From a virus, in the IMG/VR virus record IMGVR_UViG_3300007516_000010, positions 64,417-96,941 of that record: 32,525 nt of DNA; one strand, given 5' to 3'. Position numbers and translations under genes: made by a program. Positions 3,241 to 20,391 of this stretch are shown in pieces; within the stretch, counting starts at the first letter, position 1, and each line of letters begins with the position of its first letter. The notes under the pieces were generated by a model. The model made no database searches. It was not told the origin of the DNA and was given only the letters and a program-made list of their open reading frames with translations.

Positions 3241-3287
3241 CGTAGCCGGATGGTTTCAGTTTTTACTAACGCACAAAGAGAAAATAC

Positions 3288-3661
3288 ATGTTCAGGCAAG
3301 TTGATTTGGCAGATACGGTGGGCAAGACAGTCCGTGCCGTCGCGGGTATCGGTAACTACACGATAGTCGTGTCGTTTACCGACAACACCTTCAGCGCGAT
3401 ATCCGTGGACAAGCCGGACGATCCCTTCCTCGACGAGGACGAGGTGTGGATCACCTCAGACGGAAACTTCAGCGTGCTATCGCCTGGCGCTAAAAGCAAG
3501 CTCGTAGGTTTGTTCGGCAAAGAGTCTACGAAGCAAATGCGTGCGGCGGTGAAGGCCAAATCTGCGAATTTGCGAAGCAGATGACGAAGAACAATCTGGA
3601 TGAGCGTCGCGAACTTTATGCGGAACTGAAAGCGGAGTTCGAGGTTACCGGCGTCTCTTGA
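3288..3661 (+). pseudogene. hypothetical protein with probable frameshift near 3565
   Basis: ORF 3288..3584 continues in another frame as EFAKQMTKNNLDERRELYAELKAEFEVTGVS* (TGA 3659-3661). Confidence 0.55.
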
Positions 3662-8199: not shown

Positions 8200-8619
8200 G
8201 TGATAACTGGTCTCGGAGAACAAATTATGCCAGCAGAAAAAGACGTAGCCAATCGCGATAAAGCTATTCGCTGGGTAGACCTGCCGAAACTATCGCAGAT
8301 ACCAGGGTATTGGAAAGCAATACCAAACGACGAAACAACGTGGCTTGACGGTGGGGACTTTGAGATTGTCTACGTTTACTTCGACGGGAAATGGTCCGTC
8401 ATGCGACTTGGGGAATCTACCCGGGAACGGCTCGAAGATTTCTTATGGATCGGGCCAGTGACGGTGACACGAGAAGCTAAGGCCACGGCCAATGGTCCCG
8501 ACGTTCAGGGGACGGACCTTGCGTCCGGCTTCGCGGAGCTTAGGATTAGGACCAGCGATCAAATACTGATGGCCGATACCGGGAGAGCCAACGATCGTAA
8601 GAGTCTGGAAAAAAGTTAG
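8200..8619 (+). CDS. phage hypothetical protein
   Basis: PGYW...WIGPV pattern; probable start ATG 8228 after GGAG. Confidence 0.7.
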   Translation: MITGLGEQIMPAEKDVANRDKAIRWVDLPKLSQIPGYWKAIPNDETTWLDGGDFEIVYVYFDGKWSVMRLGESTRERLEDFLWIGPVTVTREAKATANGPDVQGTDLASGFAELRIRTSDQILMADTGRANDRKSLEKS

Positions 8620-8684
8620 CGAATAGATCCTCGCGATAACGCTTTGCATAACCCGTTTTGCGGCGGAAAAACTAACCACTTCGA

Positions 8685-8981
8685 ATGACTCCGGCCGCAA
8701 ATCGGGTTCATGCAATTGTTAGGATCGCGAACATGGTATCGGCGACATCGCCCCAAGACATCCAGGAAGCTGAGATAGACGCCGCTTTGACTGAATACGT
8801 CAGGCGAATTTACGGAGGCAGCGACGGTATTCACGACATGCAGTTGCGAGAAGTCCGTCAGGCGTTCTTGTCGGGCGTCCATTGGCTCAACACTCATCCT
8901 GGCTACGTTCCGTCTGTAATGGAACGATCGCTCAAGACGATCCTGACACGAGATTCGCATTTGCCTGATTCGTCGCCCTAA
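8685..8981 (+). CDS. hypothetical protein
   Basis: 98-aa ORF; QLREVRQAFLSG segment. Confidence 0.6.
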   Translation: MTPAANRVHAIVRIANMVSATSPQDIQEAEIDAALTEYVRRIYGGSDGIHDMQLREVRQAFLSGVHWLNTHPGYVPSVMERSLKTILTRDSHLPDSSP

Positions 8982-9034
8982 CTAGATATTTAATCGCACT
9001 GCGCAGATTAACGACGGCAGCCCGTACTCACCTT

Positions 9035-9096: not shown

Positions 9097-9900
9097 ATGC
9101 GAGCCTATCTGGACTTGCTTGAAGACGTCATCACCAACGGCGAAGGCCACGCCGACCGCACCGGTGTCGGTACCCGGTCGGTGTTCGGACGGACTTTTCG
9201 TCACGACATGTCCGAAGGGTTTCCGATCCTCACTACCAAGAAGGTTGCGTTCCGCTGGGTAGCGGAAGAGCTGTTTTGGTTCTTGTCCGGCTCAACCAAC
9301 GCCAAAGACTTGTCCGCCAAGGGGGTAAGCATCTGGGATGAGTGGCAGCGAGAAGATGGCGATCTCGGTCCGGTTTACGGTAAGCAGTTCAGAGATTTCG
9401 GCGGCGTGGACCAGTTGCAAGTGTTCTTGGACCAGTTGATGTCCAACCCACAGAGTCGTCGGCACGTCATGACACTCTGGAATCCGGTCGACTTGCCTCA
9501 GATGGCGTTACCGCCGTGCCACGGGATTTCGATCCAGGCCAAGGTACACCAAGACGACAGCCTGTCGCTGATGATGACCCAGCGTTCAGCCGATATTTTA
9601 TTGGGTGTTCCCTACAACATCACGTCGTATGGCTTGTTCTTGTCGCTGCTCGGATGGGTGACCGGCCGCAAGACCCGCGAGCTGATCATCACGTTTGGTG
9701 ACCTCCATCTGTACAACAACCACGTCGAGCAGGCAACGACTCAGCTGAGTCGTACACCGCATGCGTTACCAAAGCTGGCTATCAAGTCGTCGTTACCGCA
9801 GGGGTCGCCGCTGGAGCGGTTGTTGTCGGTCAAATACGAACACCTAAACCTACGTGCTTACACGCATCATCCGCCGATCAAAGCCGACGTAGCGGTTTAA
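9097..9900 (+). CDS. thyA: thymidylate synthase
   Basis: DRTGVGT, FPILTTKKV, ELFWF, LGPVYG, ALPPCH (catalytic Cys), QRSAD..GVPYN, GDLHLY; AGGAG RBS. Confidence 0.97.
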   Translation: MRAYLDLLEDVITNGEGHADRTGVGTRSVFGRTFRHDMSEGFPILTTKKVAFRWVAEELFWFLSGSTNAKDLSAKGVSIWDEWQREDGDLGPVYGKQFRDFGGVDQLQVFLDQLMSNPQSRRHVMTLWNPVDLPQMALPPCHGISIQAKVHQDDSLSLMMTQRSADILLGVPYNITSYGLFLSLLGWVTGRKTRELIITFGDLHLYNNHVEQATTQLSRTPHALPKLAIKSSLPQGSPLERLLSVKYEHLNLRAYTHHPPIKADVAV

Positions 9901-13567: not shown

Positions 13568-14338
13568 ATGGCAAGCGTGACATTTTTGGTGGTGGCGACG
13601 AATGCTTATTTACCGCTAGGTGTACGGCTGGTTAAGCGGTTCAACCACTTTTATCATGGCGAGGACGCCGTAACGATACACTTGCTTACGGACGAGGAGC
13701 TGGAACCGTATTTACCGCCAGGTAACTGGGCACGCGAGCGACGCATACACACTAACTGGGTGGAGGGCACCAGCTCGAAGTTTAAAGAGTTGATCACCTT
13801 GAGCCGGTCGTGCGACACAGAGTACCTTTACGTCCTAGACGCGGACACAAGCTTTAACCGCCCGTTTGATCTAAAGTGGTTACTTGGCGACACGGTAGCG
13901 TGTGAGCACTTTGGCAACCGCGACTGGATGGCCGACAACGATAAAAAGAATTACGAACGCAATCGTAAGTCGCTGGCATACGTTCCGTATGACACCCCCC
14001 ATCCTCAGATGTATTACATGGGGATGCTGATTGGCGGCAAAACCACGTGTGTTGAAGAGTTTTCGACCACAATGCTCGATTGGCAGACAGAAGATACTCG
14101 CACTGGCAATCCAGCTTGCGTGCAGGACGAGTCGTACATCAACAAGTATTTTCACGTGAATCCGCCGTCGCACGTGGTACCGACTGACGGGTTTCCTTGG
14201 GTTATCTCTGACAAAGGCGGTCTGGGAGAGACTCGCAACGTCAACTTGGGCGTCAGCCGGGTCAAAGCTGTCCTGCAGGAATTTCGAGATCGTCCGTTGA
14301 TTGACATCAGAAATAACGTAGTTTCAGCCGTCAATTGA
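13568..14338 (+). CDS. glycosyltransferase family 6 (ABO/alpha-1,3-Gal(NAc)T-like)
   Basis: VATNAY, LLTD, DxD motif (DAD), YERNRKSLAYV, YYMG..IGG, QDESYINKYF. Confidence 0.88.
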   Translation: MASVTFLVVATNAYLPLGVRLVKRFNHFYHGEDAVTIHLLTDEELEPYLPPGNWARERRIHTNWVEGTSSKFKELITLSRSCDTEYLYVLDADTSFNRPFDLKWLLGDTVACEHFGNRDWMADNDKKNYERNRKSLAYVPYDTPHPQMYYMGMLIGGKTTCVEEFSTTMLDWQTEDTRTGNPACVQDESYINKYFHVNPPSHVVPTDGFPWVISDKGGLGETRNVNLGVSRVKAVLQEFRDRPLIDIRNNVVSAVN

Positions 14339-14344
14339 TCCCGG

Positions 14345-14372
14345 GCGGCGACAAAATCGATTTTGTCGCCGC
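14345..14372. repeat. dispersed palindrome copy 4
   Basis: Perfect 28-bp GCGGCGACAAAATCGATTTTGTCGCCGC, 6 nt after GT6 stop. Confidence 0.95.
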
Positions 14373-14483
14373 ACCGCTTATTCGGTCTTACCTGGTGGCA
14401 GCGGGCAAAGTTTGTAGCCCTTCGGCCCGCGGGTATGGTGACTTGCTGGTAGCTGACCGGCGGTGCATCATCAGAGGCGGACA

Positions 14484-14939
14484 ATGCAAGATAAAACAAG
14501 GCTACTGAAGATGAGCGATCTTAAGCTAGCGGCCGCCATGGACGCTGAGCTGTTCGACGATTCGTGGACATCCGAGGACTTCAGCCAGTATATCGCTGAT
14601 CATACGTGCAAAATCATCGGCACCTTTCGTGACCGCAAGTTGGTGGGGTACGCCTGCGTCGCGTTTTACGGCCGCCGCATCGCCATAGACCGGCTGTGTA
14701 TTAACGACGGCGACGACGACGATCCAGCGACCGTCAAATTAATCGCCGCGATGAAGCAGATTCTTCCTGCCGGCGGTCAGGTACGCCTGGAGATCGAGGT
14801 CCAGCTGGAGGACAGTGATACGCTCGCTCTGTTCAAAGCAGACGGCTTTGTTGCGCGGCCCTGGGCGAATGGCAAGTATGTGCATCCCAGAACCGAACAG
14901 GTCAGACTTTGTTATCTTCCCGCTGTCACGCCACTTTAA
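14484..14939 (+). CDS. GNAT/RimI-like acetyltransferase-fold protein
   Basis: DLKLAAAMDAELFDDSW, LVGY, IDRLCI, LEIEV, ALFKADGF; acetyl-CoA-binding motif A looks degenerate. Confidence 0.7.
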   Translation: MQDKTRLLKMSDLKLAAAMDAELFDDSWTSEDFSQYIADHTCKIIGTFRDRKLVGYACVAFYGRRIAIDRLCINDGDDDDPATVKLIAAMKQILPAGGQVRLEIEVQLEDSDTLALFKADGFVARPWANGKYVHPRTEQVRLCYLPAVTPL

Positions 14940-14956
14940 GTAACGAGAAAGTCCAG

Positions 14957-15622
14957 ATGATTAACACAGACCCAGTTGCAACGACGAACACGACAGAACT
15001 GCCACGCACTGTTTACGTCGCCGGCCCGATGCGAGGCATCAAGTATTTCAACTTTCCAGAATTCGATGCAGCTAAAGCTAAACTCGAAGCTGCAGGGTTC
15101 AACGTCATATCGCCGGCCGATTTAGACCGAGAGGCTGGGTGCAATCCAGGCAGCTTTCATGCGGACTACGACTGGACCGACTTAGCCGCGTGCGGCTTTT
15201 TGCTTTCCGATGCTATTGACCGTGACATTGAGGCCCTCAAACGCTGCGATGCGATTTACATGCTGCGTGGTTGGGAGCGGTCCAAAGGGGCGAAAGCTGA
15301 GAAAGCGTTAGCGGAATGGATAGGGCTAGAAGTCCTCTACCAGGAATCTGAAGACATTCTCGAAGAAGCACTGCGGATCACCCGGGGCGACCGCAACAAC
15401 GATTACGGGCATCCTTTCGACGACTTCACCAAGACCGCCAAGATGTGGTCGGCGATTCTAGGTGTGACTGTTGGGCCGGAGCACGTCGCGATGTGCATGA
15501 TTTGCATCAAGCTCAGCCGGCAGTGCAACTCACCTAAGCGAGATAACCTGGTCGACGGGGCCGGCTACTTCCGTACGCTGGACCTGGTCGTGAACCACCC
15601 TGACTGGAAACCGGTCCTGTAG
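14957..15622 (+). CDS. DUF4406 (nucleoside 2-deoxyribosyltransferase-like) fused to DUF6378
   Basis: VYVAGPMRG..FNFPEF...CDAIYMLRGWERSKGAKAE, then ILEEA..ITRGDRNNDYG...KRDNLVDGAGY. Confidence 0.88.
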   Translation: MINTDPVATTNTTELPRTVYVAGPMRGIKYFNFPEFDAAKAKLEAAGFNVISPADLDREAGCNPGSFHADYDWTDLAACGFLLSDAIDRDIEALKRCDAIYMLRGWERSKGAKAEKALAEWIGLEVLYQESEDILEEALRITRGDRNNDYGHPFDDFTKTAKMWSAILGVTVGPEHVAMCMICIKLSRQCNSPKRDNLVDGAGYFRTLDLVVNHPDWKPVL

Positions 15623-15656
15623 TCTGTGTCAGTGATTCGCGTTCAATCTTTATTCT

Positions 15657-15944
15657 TTGCGGAGCGATCCGATGCGAGTACGGGATGCGGTAATTCGTGC
15701 AGACCGGGCCAGAGCCCGCTGCCAGTCAGCAGGCCGTAACAGGCCTTTCTACCGTCGACAGGCAAAGCGAGCTGAACGGCGACTGGGCCAGGCGATCATC
15801 CGGGAGTCGCTTGTCGAGCTTGACGGCGATGCGGTCCATCGCCGGATAGTGTTTAATGCGGCCGTCACCCGGCGGTCGACAATCTTGCAGAACGACTTGT
15901 GGTTGTTCATCGAATGCTTAAATCACCCCGGCGACGTGATTTAA
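15657..15944 (+). CDS. hypothetical Arg-rich protein ending at the attC-array junction
   Basis: 95-aa ORF whose stop TAA overlaps the AAC of attC-like site A. Confidence 0.45.
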   Translation: MRSDPMRVRDAVIRADRARARCQSAGRNRPFYRRQAKRAERRLGQAIIRESLVELDGDAVHRRIVFNAAVTRRSTILQNDLWLFIECLNHPGDVI

Positions 15945-16016
15945 CGTTCAAAATCACCGTGACCCGGCGGATGATTTCCAATTTCAATAAACCGTAGTCC
16001 GGGTCTGCGGTGCATT
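15939..16016 (-). mobile_element. attC-like site A (degenerate R'' end)
   Basis: 15943-16016 identical to 17677-17750; minus-strand R' reads GTTAAAT; R'' end disrupted (GCATTGTCTGC vs GCATTTTATGGTTCTGC on +). Confidence 0.75.
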
Positions 16017-16283
16017 GTCTGCTGACCAGTTGAAGCTGTCGACGCACTTCATGGTTTTGTTCTTGCCGTTTACTGGTAGCGTGTAAAGGGCATAGGTTAG
16101 TACAGTTTCAGCACCGACTTTTATCAGTTCATGGGAGTCATTGATGGTTAAAGCAACGCAGTTGACAAGCGGATTACCGCGAGGAAGCGGTAACGATTTC
16201 TTGATGCATCCTAAATCGGCTTCGATGGAGCTTATCTGCAAAGACAGCGATGGCAGTGTTTTGGGTAGTTCTGAGTTGGACAT
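15984..16283 (-). CDS. possible cassette ORF (minus)
   Basis: 99-aa ORF running into site A; overlaps a + ORF. Confidence 0.35.
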   Translation of the reverse strand: MSNSELPKTLPSLSLQISSIEADLGCIKKSLPLPRGNPLVNCVALTINDSHELIKVGAETVLTYALYTLPVNGKNKTMKCVDSFNWSADNAPQTRTTVY

Positions 16284-16431
16284 GCTTGAGTTCGATAACT
16301 TAGTTGAGTATTTAGTGCTGGCTTACGGGATATTACCGCTAGACTGCGTCAAGCGAACGTTGTTGGCTTTGGAGCGGCATGCGATGAGTCTTAATACAGG
16401 CGGCGTTTCAGTAGCAGAACGCCCGCGATAA
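16141..16431 (+). CDS. possible ORF ending inside attC-like site D
   Basis: 96-aa ORF; stop lies within the attC arm. Confidence 0.35.
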   Translation: MMVKATQLTSGLPRGSGNDFLMHPKSASMELICKDSDGSVLGSSELDMLEFDNLVEYLVLAYGILPLDCVKRTLLALERHAMSLNTGGVSVAERPR

Positions 16432-16505
16432 CCGGGCACGAAAGGTAAAATTATGAGTTCAGATAAAGATCAACAGAGTGCTCCGCGTTCATCGGATGGT
16501 TCTGC
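16414..16505 (-). mobile_element. attC-like site D
   Basis: Minus strand: GCAGAAC-CATCC-GATGAACGCGGAGCAC...GTGCCCGGTTATC-GCGGGC-GTTCTGC, 92 bp. Confidence 0.8.
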
Positions 16506-16707
16506 TCCGGGTGCGGTAGCGGGCGAGCAGCAAGCATGTACGAGCCTGCCATTTTCAGAGTGGCTAGGCGGTGAAGCCATTACGCCGGAAGAGGCATCGG
16601 ACAGAACGGGGTTACCAGTCAGCTTCTTCAACAATACATGGAGAGACGACCCGGATTACATTGCCAAGTATGTGACTCCGTACGAGAAAACGTCAGAGAC
16701 GGTTTAA
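16453..16707 (+). CDS. hypothetical protein initiating inside attC-like site D
   Basis: AAAGG RBS and ATG in the attC loop; ITPEEASDRTGLPVSFF resembles an HTH fragment. Confidence 0.55.
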   Translation: MSSDKDQQSAPRSSDGSAPGAVAGEQQACTSLPFSEWLGGEAITPEEASDRTGLPVSFFNNTWRDDPDYIAKYVTPYEKTSETV

Positions 16708-16952
16708 GTCGAGGCATCTTCAGATGGGAACATCACTATCAGCAGTCCGTCAGAGGATTGATTGATAGCTGCAGTATCGGGAATCCTGTATTCCGACACT
16801 AAAGTCGATCCTTGCGACGTTTACGCAAATAATTTGCCGTCGCGTTTGACTACTCGACAATCGTGCCAAGGGTCTGGACTGCCAGTGATATGAAGCTTGA
16901 CACTTCCAGCATTCAGCAGGTCTTCTTCCGATGTGTTACCGTGGTATTGCAT
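16704..16952 (-). pseudogene. cassette gene with premature stop
   Basis: MQYHGNTSEEDLLNAGSVKLHITGSPDPWHDCRVVKRDGKLFA*TSQGSTLVSEYRIPDTAAINQSSDGLLIVMFPSEDAST*; internal TAA at 16821-16823; ATG 18 nt after the R' box of site C. Confidence 0.55.
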
Positions 16953-16970
16953 GTGTCTTCAGTTTCAGCA

Positions 16971-17059
16971 GCAGAACGTTAACGATCAGCGGTCGACCGT
17001 CGCTGATTCTTCAATTCCAAGCGGATGATCGGTCGCTCCGTTGCGTCGCATGGTTCTGC
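16971..17059 (-). mobile_element. attC-like site C
   Basis: Minus strand: GCAGAAC-CATGC-GACGCAACGGAGCGACCG...CGGTCGACCGCTGATC-GTTAAC-GTTCTGC, 89 bp. Confidence 0.82.
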
Positions 17060-17429
17060 TCCGCGTGGAGTGGGGCCGGGGAGAATTAGAGATATGGTTG
17101 AATCTACTGAGAAATCGATTCTCGATCCGAATCCGGAAGTTCCGTACAATTGCATTGTGGGCGAACCGTTGCCAGGTGTTAGTGGGCTAGAGTGGCAGGA
17201 TGAGAGCCTTCTTGAGTCTGGTCAAACAGGCTTTTACTTAGTTTACAGCCCAAAAACTCACCAAATCCTCTTTACGCATTTAGTAGGTCCACAAGACCTA
17301 ACAGTGTTACGCGTAGGTGATCGTGACCAGGGTTATCGTCTGCTTGGACCGTTACCCAAGCCGCCGGTATATTTTTGCCCGGGAACAACCAACGGACTTG
17401 ACATCGACCCTAACTGGCACTGGGAGTAG
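17025..17429 (+). CDS. phage-type hypothetical protein; frame opens inside attC-like site C
   Basis: GFYLVY...LLGPLPKPP; alternative start ATG 17094 after GGGAG. Confidence 0.6.
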   Translation: MIGRSVASHGSAPRGVGPGRIRDMVESTEKSILDPNPEVPYNCIVGEPLPGVSGLEWQDESLLESGQTGFYLVYSPKTHQILFTHLVGPQDLTVLRVGDRDQGYRLLGPLPKPPVYFCPGTTNGLDIDPNWHWE

Positions 17430-17649
17430 CGTTATCAATGCACTGTTTCGCTTCAGCTTCCGTGTTGAAAATTAGTGTGCTTTCGACAACGACTTTCGAC
17501 CATGTATCGGACCTTCCCCAAAACATCGCAGGAATCTGTCTGTAAGTCACAGGTGACTCAATAGATCCATGCTCAATCGCTTTGCTTGGCACTGAGGTAG
17601 GATCTGACACGATTACCCATTTATTGTCTCGAAGTTTAAGCGGCTTCAT
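17410..17649 (-). CDS. cassette-encoded hypothetical protein
   Basis: ATG 17649 just downstream of site B R'; MKPLKLRDNKWVIV...FNTEAEAKQCID. Confidence 0.55.
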   Translation of the reverse strand: MKPLKLRDNKWVIVSDPTSVPSKAIEHGSIESPVTYRQIPAMFWGRSDTWSKVVVESTLIFNTEAEAKQCIDNATPSAS

Positions 17650-17672
17650 AAGTGGTTTCCCAGTCTCAGGTA

Positions 17673-17762
17673 GCAGAACGTTCAAAATCACCGTGACCCG
17701 GCGGATGATTTCCAATTTCAATAAACCGTAGTCCGGGTCTGCGGTGCATTTTATGGTTCTGC
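17673..17762 (-). mobile_element. attC-like site B
   Basis: Minus strand: GCAGAAC-CATAA-AATGCACCGCAGACCCGG...CCGGGTCACGGTGATT-TTGAAC-GTTCTGC; L'' one base longer than L', 90 bp. Confidence 0.85.
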
Positions 17763-17782
17763 TCTACGATGAGCGGCGAGAA

Positions 17783-18016
17783 TCATACGGAGTCAGTAAG
17801 ATGGCAATAAGCAGCATAAGCAGCCCGAGCATCTGCATTGGGCTTGATTTTGGTGGTGGAACACCAGGTCAAGAAACCGTCAATTGTTACGTAGGTCTTT
17901 ACGACGGAGTTAGGGTCATCGAGATTACGAAACCGCTCTTCGATGTACTCGACCCACTCATCGTATGTAAGCGTGAATTCTTCCGGGAATGCACGAACGA
18001 ACAATTTAACCACCAC
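17783..18016 (-). CDS. cassette-encoded hypothetical protein (possibly 5'-truncated)
   Basis: TYDEWVEYIEERF...VTIDGFLTWC...NADARAAYA looks protein-like; stop 20 nt before R'' of site B, the classic cassette layout. Confidence 0.6.
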   Translation of the reverse strand: MVVKLFVRAFPEEFTLTYDEWVEYIEERFRNLDDPNSVVKTYVTIDGFLTWCSTTKIKPNADARAAYAAYCHLTDSV

Positions 18017-18046
18017 AACGAGATATAACCAGGAAATGCAAAAGCA

Positions 18047-18214
18047 ATGCCCTACTGTAAGGAATGTAAAAGAGAGCTGGACTGCGAGGACACCAACGGT
18101 AGAGACCTAGAGACCATGGGCGGTCTATCTGTCGAATACTACGTGTGCGAAGAATGCAACATCCCCTACGAACTAATAGGGGACAACCTGTACAGAACAG
18201 ACGACCAATCATGA
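18047..18214 (+). CDS. small zinc-ribbon protein (55 aa, below ORF-track cutoff)
   Basis: MPYCKECKRELD...YYVCEECNIPY; AGGA upstream. Confidence 0.7.
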   Translation: MPYCKECKRELDCEDTNGRDLETMGGLSVEYYVCEECNIPYELIGDNLYRTDDQS

Positions 18215-18315
18215 GTTTCAGAGAACTAATGAAATTCGCAGCAATATTAACGGATAATCGCTCAGTATTTGCGAGCTTTCCGCTTATTGCCGTGTAACTC
18301 TTTTAGGAACCAAAC

Positions 18316-18633
18316 ATGCCGACTACGGCACACACTCAATTTCTGGGCGGAGTACCGTGCAACGTCCCCAACCGTACTGACGATGTCGTTACGGGAAGCC
18401 CGCACTGGTACGTCTCCTACAACAACTACGATCAGGCGGTCTACGGCTCAGACACCACTGCGCTTGTGTTGGGACAAGTTGAATACATTCTCATCTTAAA
18501 CGGCGACCACCGGGACGGGCTGCGGGCCTGTATCACAGTTAAAGACCTCGCCACCTCTCGCCTTAATCGTTGCCTAGCGTACGTACGCGAGCACAAAGCG
18601 GAACTTAATTTCCGCAGCAATCCGATCATCTAA
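18316..18633 (+). CDS. phage hypothetical protein
   Basis: AGGA RBS; WYVSYN..YGSDTTALV...ILNGDHR. Confidence 0.8.
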   Translation: MPTTAHTQFLGGVPCNVPNRTDDVVTGSPHWYVSYNNYDQAVYGSDTTALVLGQVEYILILNGDHRDGLRACITVKDLATSRLNRCLAYVREHKAELNFRSNPII

Positions 18634-18733
18634 AACAAAAGCGGAGCGGATTTCGTCGAATGTGCATTCGGCGGCTGAGCGTATTCGAACTGGGTATTAC
18701 CCCGATAGCTTTTAACTCTTACCAAGGAAGACC

Positions 18734-19660
18734 ATGAATTACTACCTAATCACACTTTCGTGTGAATGTCCCGGGTATACCAGCCACCACCGGTTGCAGT
18801 TCGTTATTACAGAGCATGTGACGAGCACGGCTTCTGGCTTGCTTTCCAACCTATGCGACACACTTACCGACACAAGCGTCAATCCGTATGTTGAATTGTC
18901 TTTTGTCAGACTACCTCCAACACACGTCAGAATGTTTAGCAGCTACAGCATTGATCAGCTCGAAAAAGTCACAGCCGAGATATCTGTGGCAATTATTGCC
19001 TACACCAACAGGCTGCTTCGGTCAGGCTTTACGCTTGCGGCCGCTCCGCGGCCGGAGGCATCGCCGGAGGCATCGCCAGACAAGGCAGGCAAGACGACGC
19101 TGCGGAACACGGTTTTGGCGATGCTGTTAGCCACCGAAGATAGCGATATCAATTATCAAGAAGCCGCGAGTCTTCGCACAGTTATCGGCGGTGAGCCGCT
19201 ATATCAATTTAGGCATGCTGACGGCGAGACTAGTTACGCGGCGATGCAAGACGTGCTGGAGGTCGGCAATCCGCGAAACGAAAGCGACGATGACGAAGAT
19301 GCGGGGTACATCGGCTTAGTTCCGCCCGTTGTCGGCATCGACATGTCCGGAGGGCTGGTGACTTCGGTATGGGTTGACGGTTCCCCTGAAAGCAAGTATT
19401 TCGTTAACGACTCCGACGACTGGGCGGAGGTCAACTGGGACATCATTGACTGGGACGCCATTGACTGGGACACAGAGGTAGCCGCGGCCGTCACCGATCA
19501 GGTCGAACGCGTGGTCGAATACCTGCGGGCCTGGCGAAAAGGAGAAATGAGTTCGGAATTATTGTTTTGGCTGATCGACGCGGCCCCGACCGAATTAGTT
19601 GATCTTGTTTCGCACGCGATTATCACCATCCAAAATTGCGACACGGTGTCCGATAAATAG
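18734..19660 (+). CDS. hypothetical acidic protein
   Basis: 308-aa ORF after AAGGA; repeated D/W motif VNWDIIDWDAIDWD. Confidence 0.7.
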   Translation: MNYYLITLSCECPGYTSHHRLQFVITEHVTSTASGLLSNLCDTLTDTSVNPYVELSFVRLPPTHVRMFSSYSIDQLEKVTAEISVAIIAYTNRLLRSGFTLAAAPRPEASPEASPDKAGKTTLRNTVLAMLLATEDSDINYQEAASLRTVIGGEPLYQFRHADGETSYAAMQDVLEVGNPRNESDDDEDAGYIGLVPPVVGIDMSGGLVTSVWVDGSPESKYFVNDSDDWAEVNWDIIDWDAIDWDTEVAAAVTDQVERVVEYLRAWRKGEMSSELLFWLIDAAPTELVDLVSHAIITIQNCDTVSDK

Positions 19661-19722
19661 GCGACGCTAGGGGATGCGAGGCTAAGCTGCTACTATCTGG
19701 AACAGCTCGACGACAATGCGTC

Positions 19723-19752
19723 GTCGGCGACAAAATCGATTTTGTCGGCGAC
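19723..19752. repeat. dispersed palindrome copy 5
   Basis: Core 19728-19747 perfect, arms GTCGGCGAC; at the boundary between accessory and virion/RNAP regions. Confidence 0.95.
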
Positions 19753-19821
19753 CGTACCCACGGTCGCCTGTTCGGGACAACTGCGTCCGCCTTCAATTTT
19801 TTTAGCCCCTGGAGCTCCGGC

Positions 19822-20391
19822 ATGTCTGTTGACCCCGCTCTTCTCGCAAAAGTACGCCAGGCCCTCAATAAGCAGGCGGTCGCTTCACCTGCCGACTTTG
19901 GAGGGGCTCCACCGATGCCTCCCACAACGGGGATGATGCCTCCAGGAGCCGCTCCTCCGGGCATGGACCCAGCGATGGCTGGCGGTGCTCCGCCTGTCGA
20001 TCCTGCTACCGGGCAACCGATGGACCCCGCAATGATGGACCCAGCGATGGCTGGCGGTGCTCCGCCTGTCGATCCTGCCGCGATGGAACCTGATCCGTTG
20101 TTGGAGATGATTAAGCAGATGGCCAAGGACGTGGCTCAGACCAAGGCACTGATGGCGACGGTTGTCGACCAGCTCGGCATTAAGGTTCCGACCAAGGACA
20201 TTCTTGCTAGCGGCGAAGACGCTGTCGCAGAGGCTTCGATGGGGTCGGCCAAGGCGGCTGGTTACATTGACGCGGATTCTGACGGTGAGGCGGTCGTTTT
20301 ACCGCCTGATGCAGTGGACGCCACGCAGAAGAAACTTTCGCTGGACGCTTCGTGCCAGTACGCCGCGATGGTGTTTGCTCGCAAAGGGTAG
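19822..20391 (+). CDS. Pro/Gly/Met-rich protein, putative head-associated
   Basis: GGAG RBS; MDPAMAGGAPPVDPA repeats; KQA and KAA motifs. Confidence 0.8.
   Translation: MSVDPALLAKVRQALNKQAVASPADFGGAPPMPPTTGMMPPGAAPPGMDPAMAGGAPPVDPATGQPMDPAMMDPAMAGGAPPVDPAAMEPDPLLEMIKQMAKDVAQTKALMATVVDQLGIKVPTKDILASGEDAVAEASMGSAKAAGYIDADSDGEAVVLPPDAVDATQKKLSLDASCQYAAMVFARKG
19963..20078 (+). repeat. 44-bp intragenic direct repeat (19963-20006, 20035-20078)
   Basis: ATGGACCCAGCGATGGCTGGCGGTGCTCCGCCTGTCGATCCTGC twice, 72 bp apart. Confidence 0.9.

Follow-up and report, generated by a model that had tools for sequence, protein, structure and literature searches.

The DNA analyzed here, referred to as the window, is a stretch of 32,525 nt from a virus (positions 64,417 to 96,941 of IMG/VR record IMGVR_UViG_3300007516_000010) that forms the last third of a 96,941-base contig. 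Within the window, the tract from position 15943 to about 17990 is very probably a fragment of an integron gene-cassette array, of the type termed a cluster of attC sites lacking integron integrases (CALIN), whose cassettes would trace back to insertion by the integron integrase (IntI) of a host. The carrier of the array is an uncultured jumbo phage from freshwater that has an RNA polymerase of its own, and the completeness of the contig is about 49% according to CheckV. On the minus strand, the cassettes follow one another in the order c3, c2, c1, and c0, each ending in an attC site of about 90 nt. The array thus runs antisense to its surroundings: it is flanked by plus-strand phage genes, and the plus strand holds 67 of the 70 long open reading frames (ORFs) of the contig.

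The array was first proposed from the letters and ORFs of the window alone, and its description as three hairpins bounded by GCAGAAC and GTTCTGC is confirmed in both coordinates and ends (Table 1). The three hairpins are 89–92 nt long and have the common ends AGCAGAACG...GGTTCTGCT. The pattern GCAGAAC-N60-90-GTTCTGC is matched three times in the window and in none of 100 shuffles, and it is absent from the rest of the 96.9-kb contig. The top strand of the attC sites corresponds to the minus strand of the window. In the model alignments, the sites read R'' (7 nt), a spacer of 5 nt, L'' with one unpaired base at position 4, the loop, L', a spacer of 6 nt, and R' (7 nt), an arrangement of boxes that matches aadA7 and validated phage attCs; the polarity, both spacers, and the extra bases on the 5' arm are therefore as the original prediction gave them. 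The unpaired base is a G at position 4 of L'' on the minus strand in sites 1 and 3, and approximately so in site 2, in a rule-based scan as well as in the models. GCAGAAC and GTTCTGC pair at 7/7 positions in sites 1–3. The z-scores for folding as single-stranded DNA vary widely, from -5.6 at site 3 through about -2.3 at site 2 to about -1.5 at site 1, so thermodynamic stability alone would not pick out all three sites. The distances between sites (475, 557, and 702 nt) and the position of the ORFs relative to the boxes also agree with what had been predicted: c2(-) starts 24 nt and c1(-) 18 nt past R', and c3(-) ends 20 nt before R''.

At the left end of the array, the degenerate fourth copy that had been suspected is real, here called site 0. 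From L'' to the GTT of R', site 0 (16016-15943) is 100% identical to site 3 (17750-17677), and the identity ends precisely past GTT, after which the sequence continues with AAATCAC. A 6-nt deletion has damaged R'' and the spacer of site 0, which is detected by neither of the two covariance models described below (R1 and R2). With three intact minus-strand attCs in 1.35 kb and no tyrosine recombinase (PF00589) in the entire 96.9-kb contig, the array is a CALIN, and the earlier statement that the window lacks an integrase extends to the whole contig. It falls short of a complete integron because of the missing recombinase and because its integrase-proximal end is truncated inside c3. Rfam contains no attC family, and its search gave nothing relevant in 14000-20000.

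Table 1. Positions of attC sites, cassettes, and ORFs in the window (window coordinates; R1 and R2 are covariance models).
Feature	Position	Strand	Remarks
Solo attC, same family	8634-8724	-	Best R2 match of the contig, 30.0 bits; R1 23.7 bits
Putative single cassette ending in the solo attC	8640-8982	-	From sequence and box
Site 0, decayed attC, left array end	15943-16021	-	L'' through GTT of R' intact
Cassette 0, 475 nt	15945-16419	-	Ends in site 0
c0(-), sense ORF, 99 aa	15984-16283	-	
c0(+), antisense ORF	16144-16431	+	Extends 11 nt beyond the crossover point, into site 1
attC site 1, 92 nt	16414-16505	-	R2 29.4 bits, R1 25.3 bits; full length
Cassette 1, 557 nt	16420-16976	-	
c1(+), antisense ORF	16453-16707	+	Starts within the attC loop
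c1(-), sense ORF	16821-16952	-	43 aa, cut by TAA at 16823-16821
attC site 2, 89 nt	16971-17059	-	R2 20.5 bits, R1 22.9 bits
Cassette 2, 702 nt	16977-17678	-	
c2(+), convergent antisense ORF, 111 aa	17094-17429	+	
c2(-), sense ORF, 79 aa	17410-17649	-	Intact
attC site 3, 90 nt	17673-17762	-	R2 17.7 bits, R1 23.8 bits
c3(-), cassette gene	17783-18016	-	5'-truncated
Four-cysteine zinc-ribbon ORF, 55 aa	18047-18214		In the low-GC zone right of the array
ORF, 105 aa	18316-18633		In the low-GC zone right of the array

Two short stretches resembling attC 3' arms lie on the minus strand to the left of site 0, CCGCCGGGTGACGG at 15875-15862 and CGTTCTGC at 15893-15886. The 320 nt between the gene end at 15622 and site 0 contain no convincing ORF, and the scraps at 15850-15945 may be the remains of further cassettes.

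The assignment of the hairpins as attC sites was examined with home-built covariance models trained on known integron attCs only. The training set comprised class 1 plasmid arrays (L056–L059), a chromosomal-integron fragment in the V. anguillarum phage Va_90-11-286_p16 (L052), the integron and CALIN of Shewanella phage M16-3 (L053), and the CALIN of phage TJE1 (L054), with accessions and validated site sequences taken from Qi et al. (2023; PMC9892861). Model R1 was built from 15 sites, with the R box, the L box, and the extrahelical base encoded in its structure; it found true sites in the training arrays on which it had not been trained, and it had no match outside the arrays. For model R2, the 43 true sites recovered via R1 served as the new training set. 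The E-values of the models are rough, and the argument is based on bit scores compared with the empirical background. When R2 was run with filters off over 97.7 kb of phage DNA, its best four matches were a solo site at 8634-8724 followed by sites 1, 2, and 3, all on the minus strand, full length, and with exact boundaries, and the next match reached 12.8 bits. R1 ranks the same four sites in the order site 1, site 3, solo site, and site 2, and its next match scores 9.6 bits. In 89 kb of other phage DNA, two distant relatives included, the best match reached 10.8 bits. Across the 187 kb of phage DNA, the background stays at or below 12.8 bits, compared with 17.7–30 bits at the sites. The models thus pick exactly the three predicted hairpins and the solo site. 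The relatives L060 and L061 (43–45%) contain no attC match. A scan of IMG/VR with the end motif gave 47 single matches, one site per locus and none with a hairpin, a chance-like result that is close to a rough estimate of the chance expectation.

Sites of this family are found beside integron integrases. Genome and metagenome collections were scanned with the pattern GAGCAGAACCAT-N55-85-CGTTCTGCT, whose ends are conserved in the three sites, and the matches were filtered by R2; arrays of sites of about 90 nt were found at four loci. One of them, L075, is the whole 6,929-nt contig JAYVSE010000037.1 from a metagenome-assembled genome (MAG) labelled Planctomycetaceae bacterium. L075 encodes an integron integrase on the minus strand at 312-1262 (TIGR02249, 397.9 bits compared with a cut-off of 265), after which nine attCs follow on the plus strand in the canonical divergent layout of a complete integron. 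Its site at 3285-3373 is 90% identical to site 3. A second locus, L091, is a 58-kb metagenome contig (Ga0209284_10000609). Its IntI homolog has 46% identity to the L075 integrase, and at least 13 attCs lead away from this gene. Most cassettes of L091 have one sense ORF that starts shortly past R' and ends at the attC. When 28 sites of the family are aligned (A5), AAC and GTT never vary, and 15 of the 17 stem pairs of the hairpin show compensatory changes. The covariation score of this alignment is 0.614, compared with 0.152 in shuffles (0/500 reach the observed score) and at most 0.124 in slid controls. The cassettes of the window very probably belong to the integron cassette pool of Planctomycetaceae-like freshwater bacteria.

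The loops of attC sites are usually regarded as free to vary. In A5, a loop motif (GAAGTGG or GAAATTG) is conserved at columns of about 45–52, at 8672-8678 in the window and in many sites of L075 and L091. As for the MAG that holds L075 (G001; contigs C37, C453, C39, C191, C452, and C428), it encodes two integron integrases in full (397.9 and 395.9 bits) alongside several partial matches of the IntI type, and more than one integron may be present. The portion of the second integrase locus that was examined contained no attC. A loose pattern search, whose output was mostly noise, gave one further site of the family on another contig of the same MAG, and R2 run over the whole 8-Mb MAG was uninformative.

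The cassettes also behave as modules. Over the arrays, the outer four bases of R'' complement the R' of the previous site at 100/100 positions and the R' at their own position at 76/116, as a crossover at the GTT of the R' box (written G/TT, with the slash at the crossover point) produces. A direct comparison is provided by L116 (Ga0105054_10178524), a metagenome contig of 2,074 nt. Cassette 1 differs from L116:117-673 at only 3 of 557 nt (99.5% identity), and site 1 is identical to L116:582-673. Cassette 2 (702 nt) differs from L116:674-1375 at 34 positions (95% identity), 24 of them within the attC. The order of the cassettes is not the same: L116 reads attCx-c1-c2-next, whereas the minus strand of the window reads c3-c2-c1-c0, and the break points between the two are R' boxes. 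Further cassette neighbors were identified among proteins P0001–P0008, the source contigs of which were read as protein translations only. P0008 (NCBI) is 95% identical to c0(+) and diverges directly past GCAGAACG, so that cassette 0 adjoins another attC there. P0001 and P0005 appear, from the equal length of their source contigs, to lie on one 1190-nt ENA contig; they give a full-length c3, then a different attC (its translation is identical to that of L116:1285-1375), and then c2(-). The original prediction held that the phage captures or shuffles gene cassettes. The attC family beside IntI genes and the swapped order in L116 support this in part; they do not extend to ongoing shuffling inside the phage.

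Outside its attC, cassette 2 is 98.4% identical to its counterpart in L116, yet the attC itself (16971-17059 compared with L116:1285-1375) differs at 24 of 89 positions. The attC of cassette 2 seems to have been exchanged or converted separately from the cassette body, a divergence that crossover at G/TT alone does not explain. The first 20 nt or so of the cassettes after R' share a leader, about CTRCYGARACTGRRA, in the window, L075, L091, and L116. In the window, the leaders lie on the minus strand at 16395-16413, 16951-16970, and 17650-17672, and the leader often ends in a Shine-Dalgarno-like GGGA or AGGA ahead of the sense ORF. The leader of cassette 1 in the window is found on the c2 ORF in P0005.

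Apart from the array, the solo attC stands between the plus-strand genes 8200-8619 and 8733-8981 and has the loop motif of the family, GAAGTGG. Its R'' is TCCTAAC, and the R' at its own position, GTTATCG, does not match it, as expected for a hybrid junction. An R'-like box at 8982-8976 on the minus strand, GTTAGGG, complements TCCTAAC with one G-T pair; taken alone, such a box would turn up by chance with a probability of about 0.1. The two G/TT points are 342 nt apart, and the plus-strand ORF 8733-8981, which is the ORF that coding potential favors, fills this interval antisense. Judged by its sequence, the solo locus looks like one cassette inserted at a GTT of non-att DNA.

These features can be combined into a possible history of the phage. 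Upon infection of an integron-bearing host, the host IntI would insert excised cassette circles at GTT sites of the phage genome that resemble the genomic insertion sites known as attG. The left junction of the array (G/TTAAAT) and the solo cassette would be the footprints of such insertions, and a later deletion would have removed the 5' end of c3. Since sites 1–3 are intact, they are still potential substrates for a host IntI, which could excise or add cassettes, and the phage could ferry cassettes between cells. The array is antisense to all phage transcription, which probably leaves its sense genes silent and in decay. By position, the phage could express only the reverse ORFs c0(+), c1(+), c2(+), and 8733(+). 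A more speculative extension, offered tentatively and rather unlikely to hold in full, is that host IntI acts on a virulent jumbo phage in a natural attC x attG reaction, that cassettes with reverse ORFs are the ones kept, and that the attC type names a Planctomycetaceae-like host. If so, the cassettes would have been domesticated "backwards," through reverse-strand ORFs that face phage transcription.

Several points weigh against an array of host-IntI origin as outlined here. At two positions, both among the outer bases (2/4), the R boxes (GCAGAAC/GTTCTGC) do not fit RYYYAAC/GTTRRRY, and the extrahelical base on the bottom strand would be C, whereas G is usual. The right junction lies inside a gene and away from any att site, so illegitimate recombination or a subsequent deletion has to be assumed for at least this end. 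Insertion at GTT is deduced from the junction sequences only, and no phage relative with an empty site was found: a megablast of 14500-19500 against the phage collection had zero matches, and searches with the flanking proteins revealed no close relative. The Planctomycetaceae label comes from a MAG contig of only 6.9 kb, the binning of which could therefore be wrong. Outside the attCs, nothing convincing is shared by the phage and the MAG. Finally, the window and L116 differ at too few positions for a ratio of nonsynonymous to synonymous substitution rates (dN/dS) to show which strand of cassettes 1 and 2 is coding. The sole match between the phage flanks and the MAG (9331-9381 compared with G001:C225:5243-5293; 51 nt, 85%) lies inside the ORF 9097-9900 and is too weak for host inference.

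The main rival explanation is that a fragment of the host's chromosomal integron array entered the phage by illegitimate or microhomology-driven recombination without any integrase, in which case the G/TT at the left end would be a coincidence or an inheritance from the donor array. Recombination of this type is the usual route for phage morons. The right junction, which cuts c3 about 70 nt into its coding sequence, agrees with such an entry, and the scattered attC 3'-arm fragments at 15862-15893 suggest an untidy rearrangement. Off-target homologous or illegitimate recombination has also been proposed for the CALINs of phages (Qi et al., 2023; PMC9892861). Conversely, the identity between sites 0 and 3 stops exactly at GTT, the solo cassette has a complementary R'-like box at its far end together with a hybrid R' at its attC, and the two separate loci have the same orientation. 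Integrase-free capture is therefore a serious contender, if on the less probable side.

Insertion by a host IntI also has to be distinguished from a working integron of the phage itself, with intI and attI in the missing half of the genome and an array that shuffles cargo. The incompleteness of the contig leaves room for these genes, the three intact attCs and two attC-bearing loci would suit an active system, and a few temperate phages do carry complete integrons (Qi et al., 2023; PMC9892861). This explanation is nevertheless improbable, given 97 kb without a tyrosine recombinase, an array that has no attI-proximal end and a truncated c3, the decay of one attC and one gene, and an orientation antisense to all phage transcription. 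Less probable still is an assembly chimera in which reads from a bacterial integron were joined into the phage contig. The contig does come from a metagenome assembly, and the GC content of the tract is comparatively low. The tract does not, however, lie at a contig end: it has over 14 kb of phage genes to either side, and a 28-bp palindrome private to the phage, GGCGACAAAATCGATTTTGTCGCC, flanks it at 14345 and 19723 (at distances of 1.6 and 1.7 kb, respectively), which argues against a chimera. Moreover, neither junction coincides with any repeat that bacterial contigs share, phage genes surround a second attC 7 kb away, and the nonsense codon and truncations specific to the window look like evolution in place. 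Scarcely credible is the idea that the hairpins are native signals of plus-strand transcripts (terminators, RNase III sites, or translation control) that resemble attC by chance: the hairpins lie between plus-strand ORFs, the ribosome-binding site (RBS) and start of c1(+) fall in the loop of site 1, the RBS of the 8733 ORF comes from the R'' box, and the phage does use private hairpin punctuation, but this punctuation is the different 28-bp palindrome, the covariance-model matches are specific, identical or near-identical sites occur in integron arrays beside IntI genes, and the cassettes are modular.

The cargo of the array is partially decayed: one gene is cut at the right junction, one has a nonsense codon, and one attC has lost R''. 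The homology of c3(-) begins at FPEEF near 17989. Its homologs P0001–P0003 are 91 aa long, and the copy in the window has MVVKLFVRA in place of their first 23 residues or so; the right junction (about 17990-18010) thus cuts a gene. The nonsense codon is the TAA of c1(-), for which L116 has CAA and a sense ORF of 82 aa. The c2(-) product is 97–99% identical to P0004, P0006, and P0007 (ENA, JGI, and Logan assemblies). The c0(-) product is 40% identical to P0011 (95 aa), with an E-value of 1e-10 library-wide. Searches of the cargo against Pfam and PHROGs gave a match for c3 only, to phrog_4753 (E-value of 1.6e-5), a family of unknown function. The c3 family is absent from the genome, metagenome, and viral contig collections searched, and an AlphaFold model of c3 (predicted local distance difference test, pLDDT, of 63) had no fold match. 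For c2(+), the ESM Atlas returned nothing above 0.78. In a coding model trained on phage genes, c0(+), c1(+), and c2(+) reach scores equal to or above those of the sense ORFs, and the reverse ORFs are conserved in L116.

Two further features of the cargo concern its ORFs. Residues 26–71 of c0(-) match a unit that is repeated seven times in the 968-aa protein P0010 (E-value of 6e-13); this protein has a type IX secretion C-terminal sorting domain, and its repeat is an unnamed domain. The reverse ORFs c1(+), 8733(+), and c2(+) draw their RBS and start codon from within or beside an attC (16442-16455, 8721-8735, and 17078-17096, respectively). In the case of c1(+), the signal is GAAAGG-N7-ATG in the loop of site 1, and in the case of 8733(+), it is AGGA from the R'' box of the solo site.

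The tract had been described as richer in AT than its flanks. Its GC content is indeed 0.48–0.51 compared with 0.55–0.58 to the left of the tract and beyond 19000, but the low GC is not confined to the array and extends rightward as far as 19000. The 1 kb to the right of the array (18001-19000; GC content of 0.47–0.50) may be other acquired DNA. The two ORFs listed for this zone in Table 1 have no family match.

Integron cassettes form a large mobile pool of bacterial genes, the movement of which between cells is only partly understood. In this window, the cassettes are traceable to specific environmental integrons, the solo cassette resembles an insertion made by an integrase into ordinary phage DNA, and the family-specific attC yields a prediction, open to testing, of the host of a phage lineage that so far has none assigned; the attC family alone hints at a Planctomycetaceae-like bacterium. 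The new aspects are the jumbo-phage setting, the matches to environmental arrays in shuffled order, a possible natural attG insertion in a virus, and the lead to a host.

The kind of element is already known, since CALINs in phages were published in 2023, in the first account of attC clusters carried by phages (21 of 10,705 phage genomes). Integrons had been regarded as rare in phages when the array was first proposed, and they are rare: among 10,705 phage genomes, three integrons, one In0, and 17 CALINs were found, and IntI1 recombined five of six phage attCs (Qi et al., 2023; PMC9892861). CALINs occur in virulent phages as well, such as Tetrasphaera TJE1, Pseudoalteromonas PH101/H101, and Polaribacter P12002L (PMC9892861). 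Like those CALINs, the array described here has at least two attCs and small cassettes, lacks an integrase, and lies amid phage genes. Unlike them, it belongs to an uncultured jumbo phage with its own RNA polymerase and is antisense to the phage genes; its attCs of about 90 nt have non-canonical R boxes (GCAGAAC), the array as a whole is partly decayed, and its cassettes are matched to specific bacterial arrays and to another cassette order. With the chromosomal integrons L075 and L091, the array shares the attC family (up to 90–100% identity per site), a cassette size of 430–1430 nt, the leader past R', and an R'' that matches the previous R'. It differs from L075 and L091 in having no adjacent integrase and a truncated integrase-proximal end.

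IntI-mediated insertion of cassettes has been described for genomic positions whose core is 5'-GWT-3' (Loot et al., bioRxiv 10.1101/2022.09.11.507474). As would be expected of this attG route, the solo cassette and the left end of the array both show G/TT followed by non-att phage sequence, and a box that matches is present at the far end of the solo cassette. The attG study used E. coli chromosomes in the laboratory, whereas in the present case the target would be a natural phage genome. A further viral counterpart is Va_90-11-286_p16, another phage genome that holds a stretch of host-type array with homogeneous attCs. It belongs to a temperate phage that excises at attC sites, and it includes an integrase and 16 attCs (PMC9892861), whereas the jumbo phage has three intact sites and no integrase.

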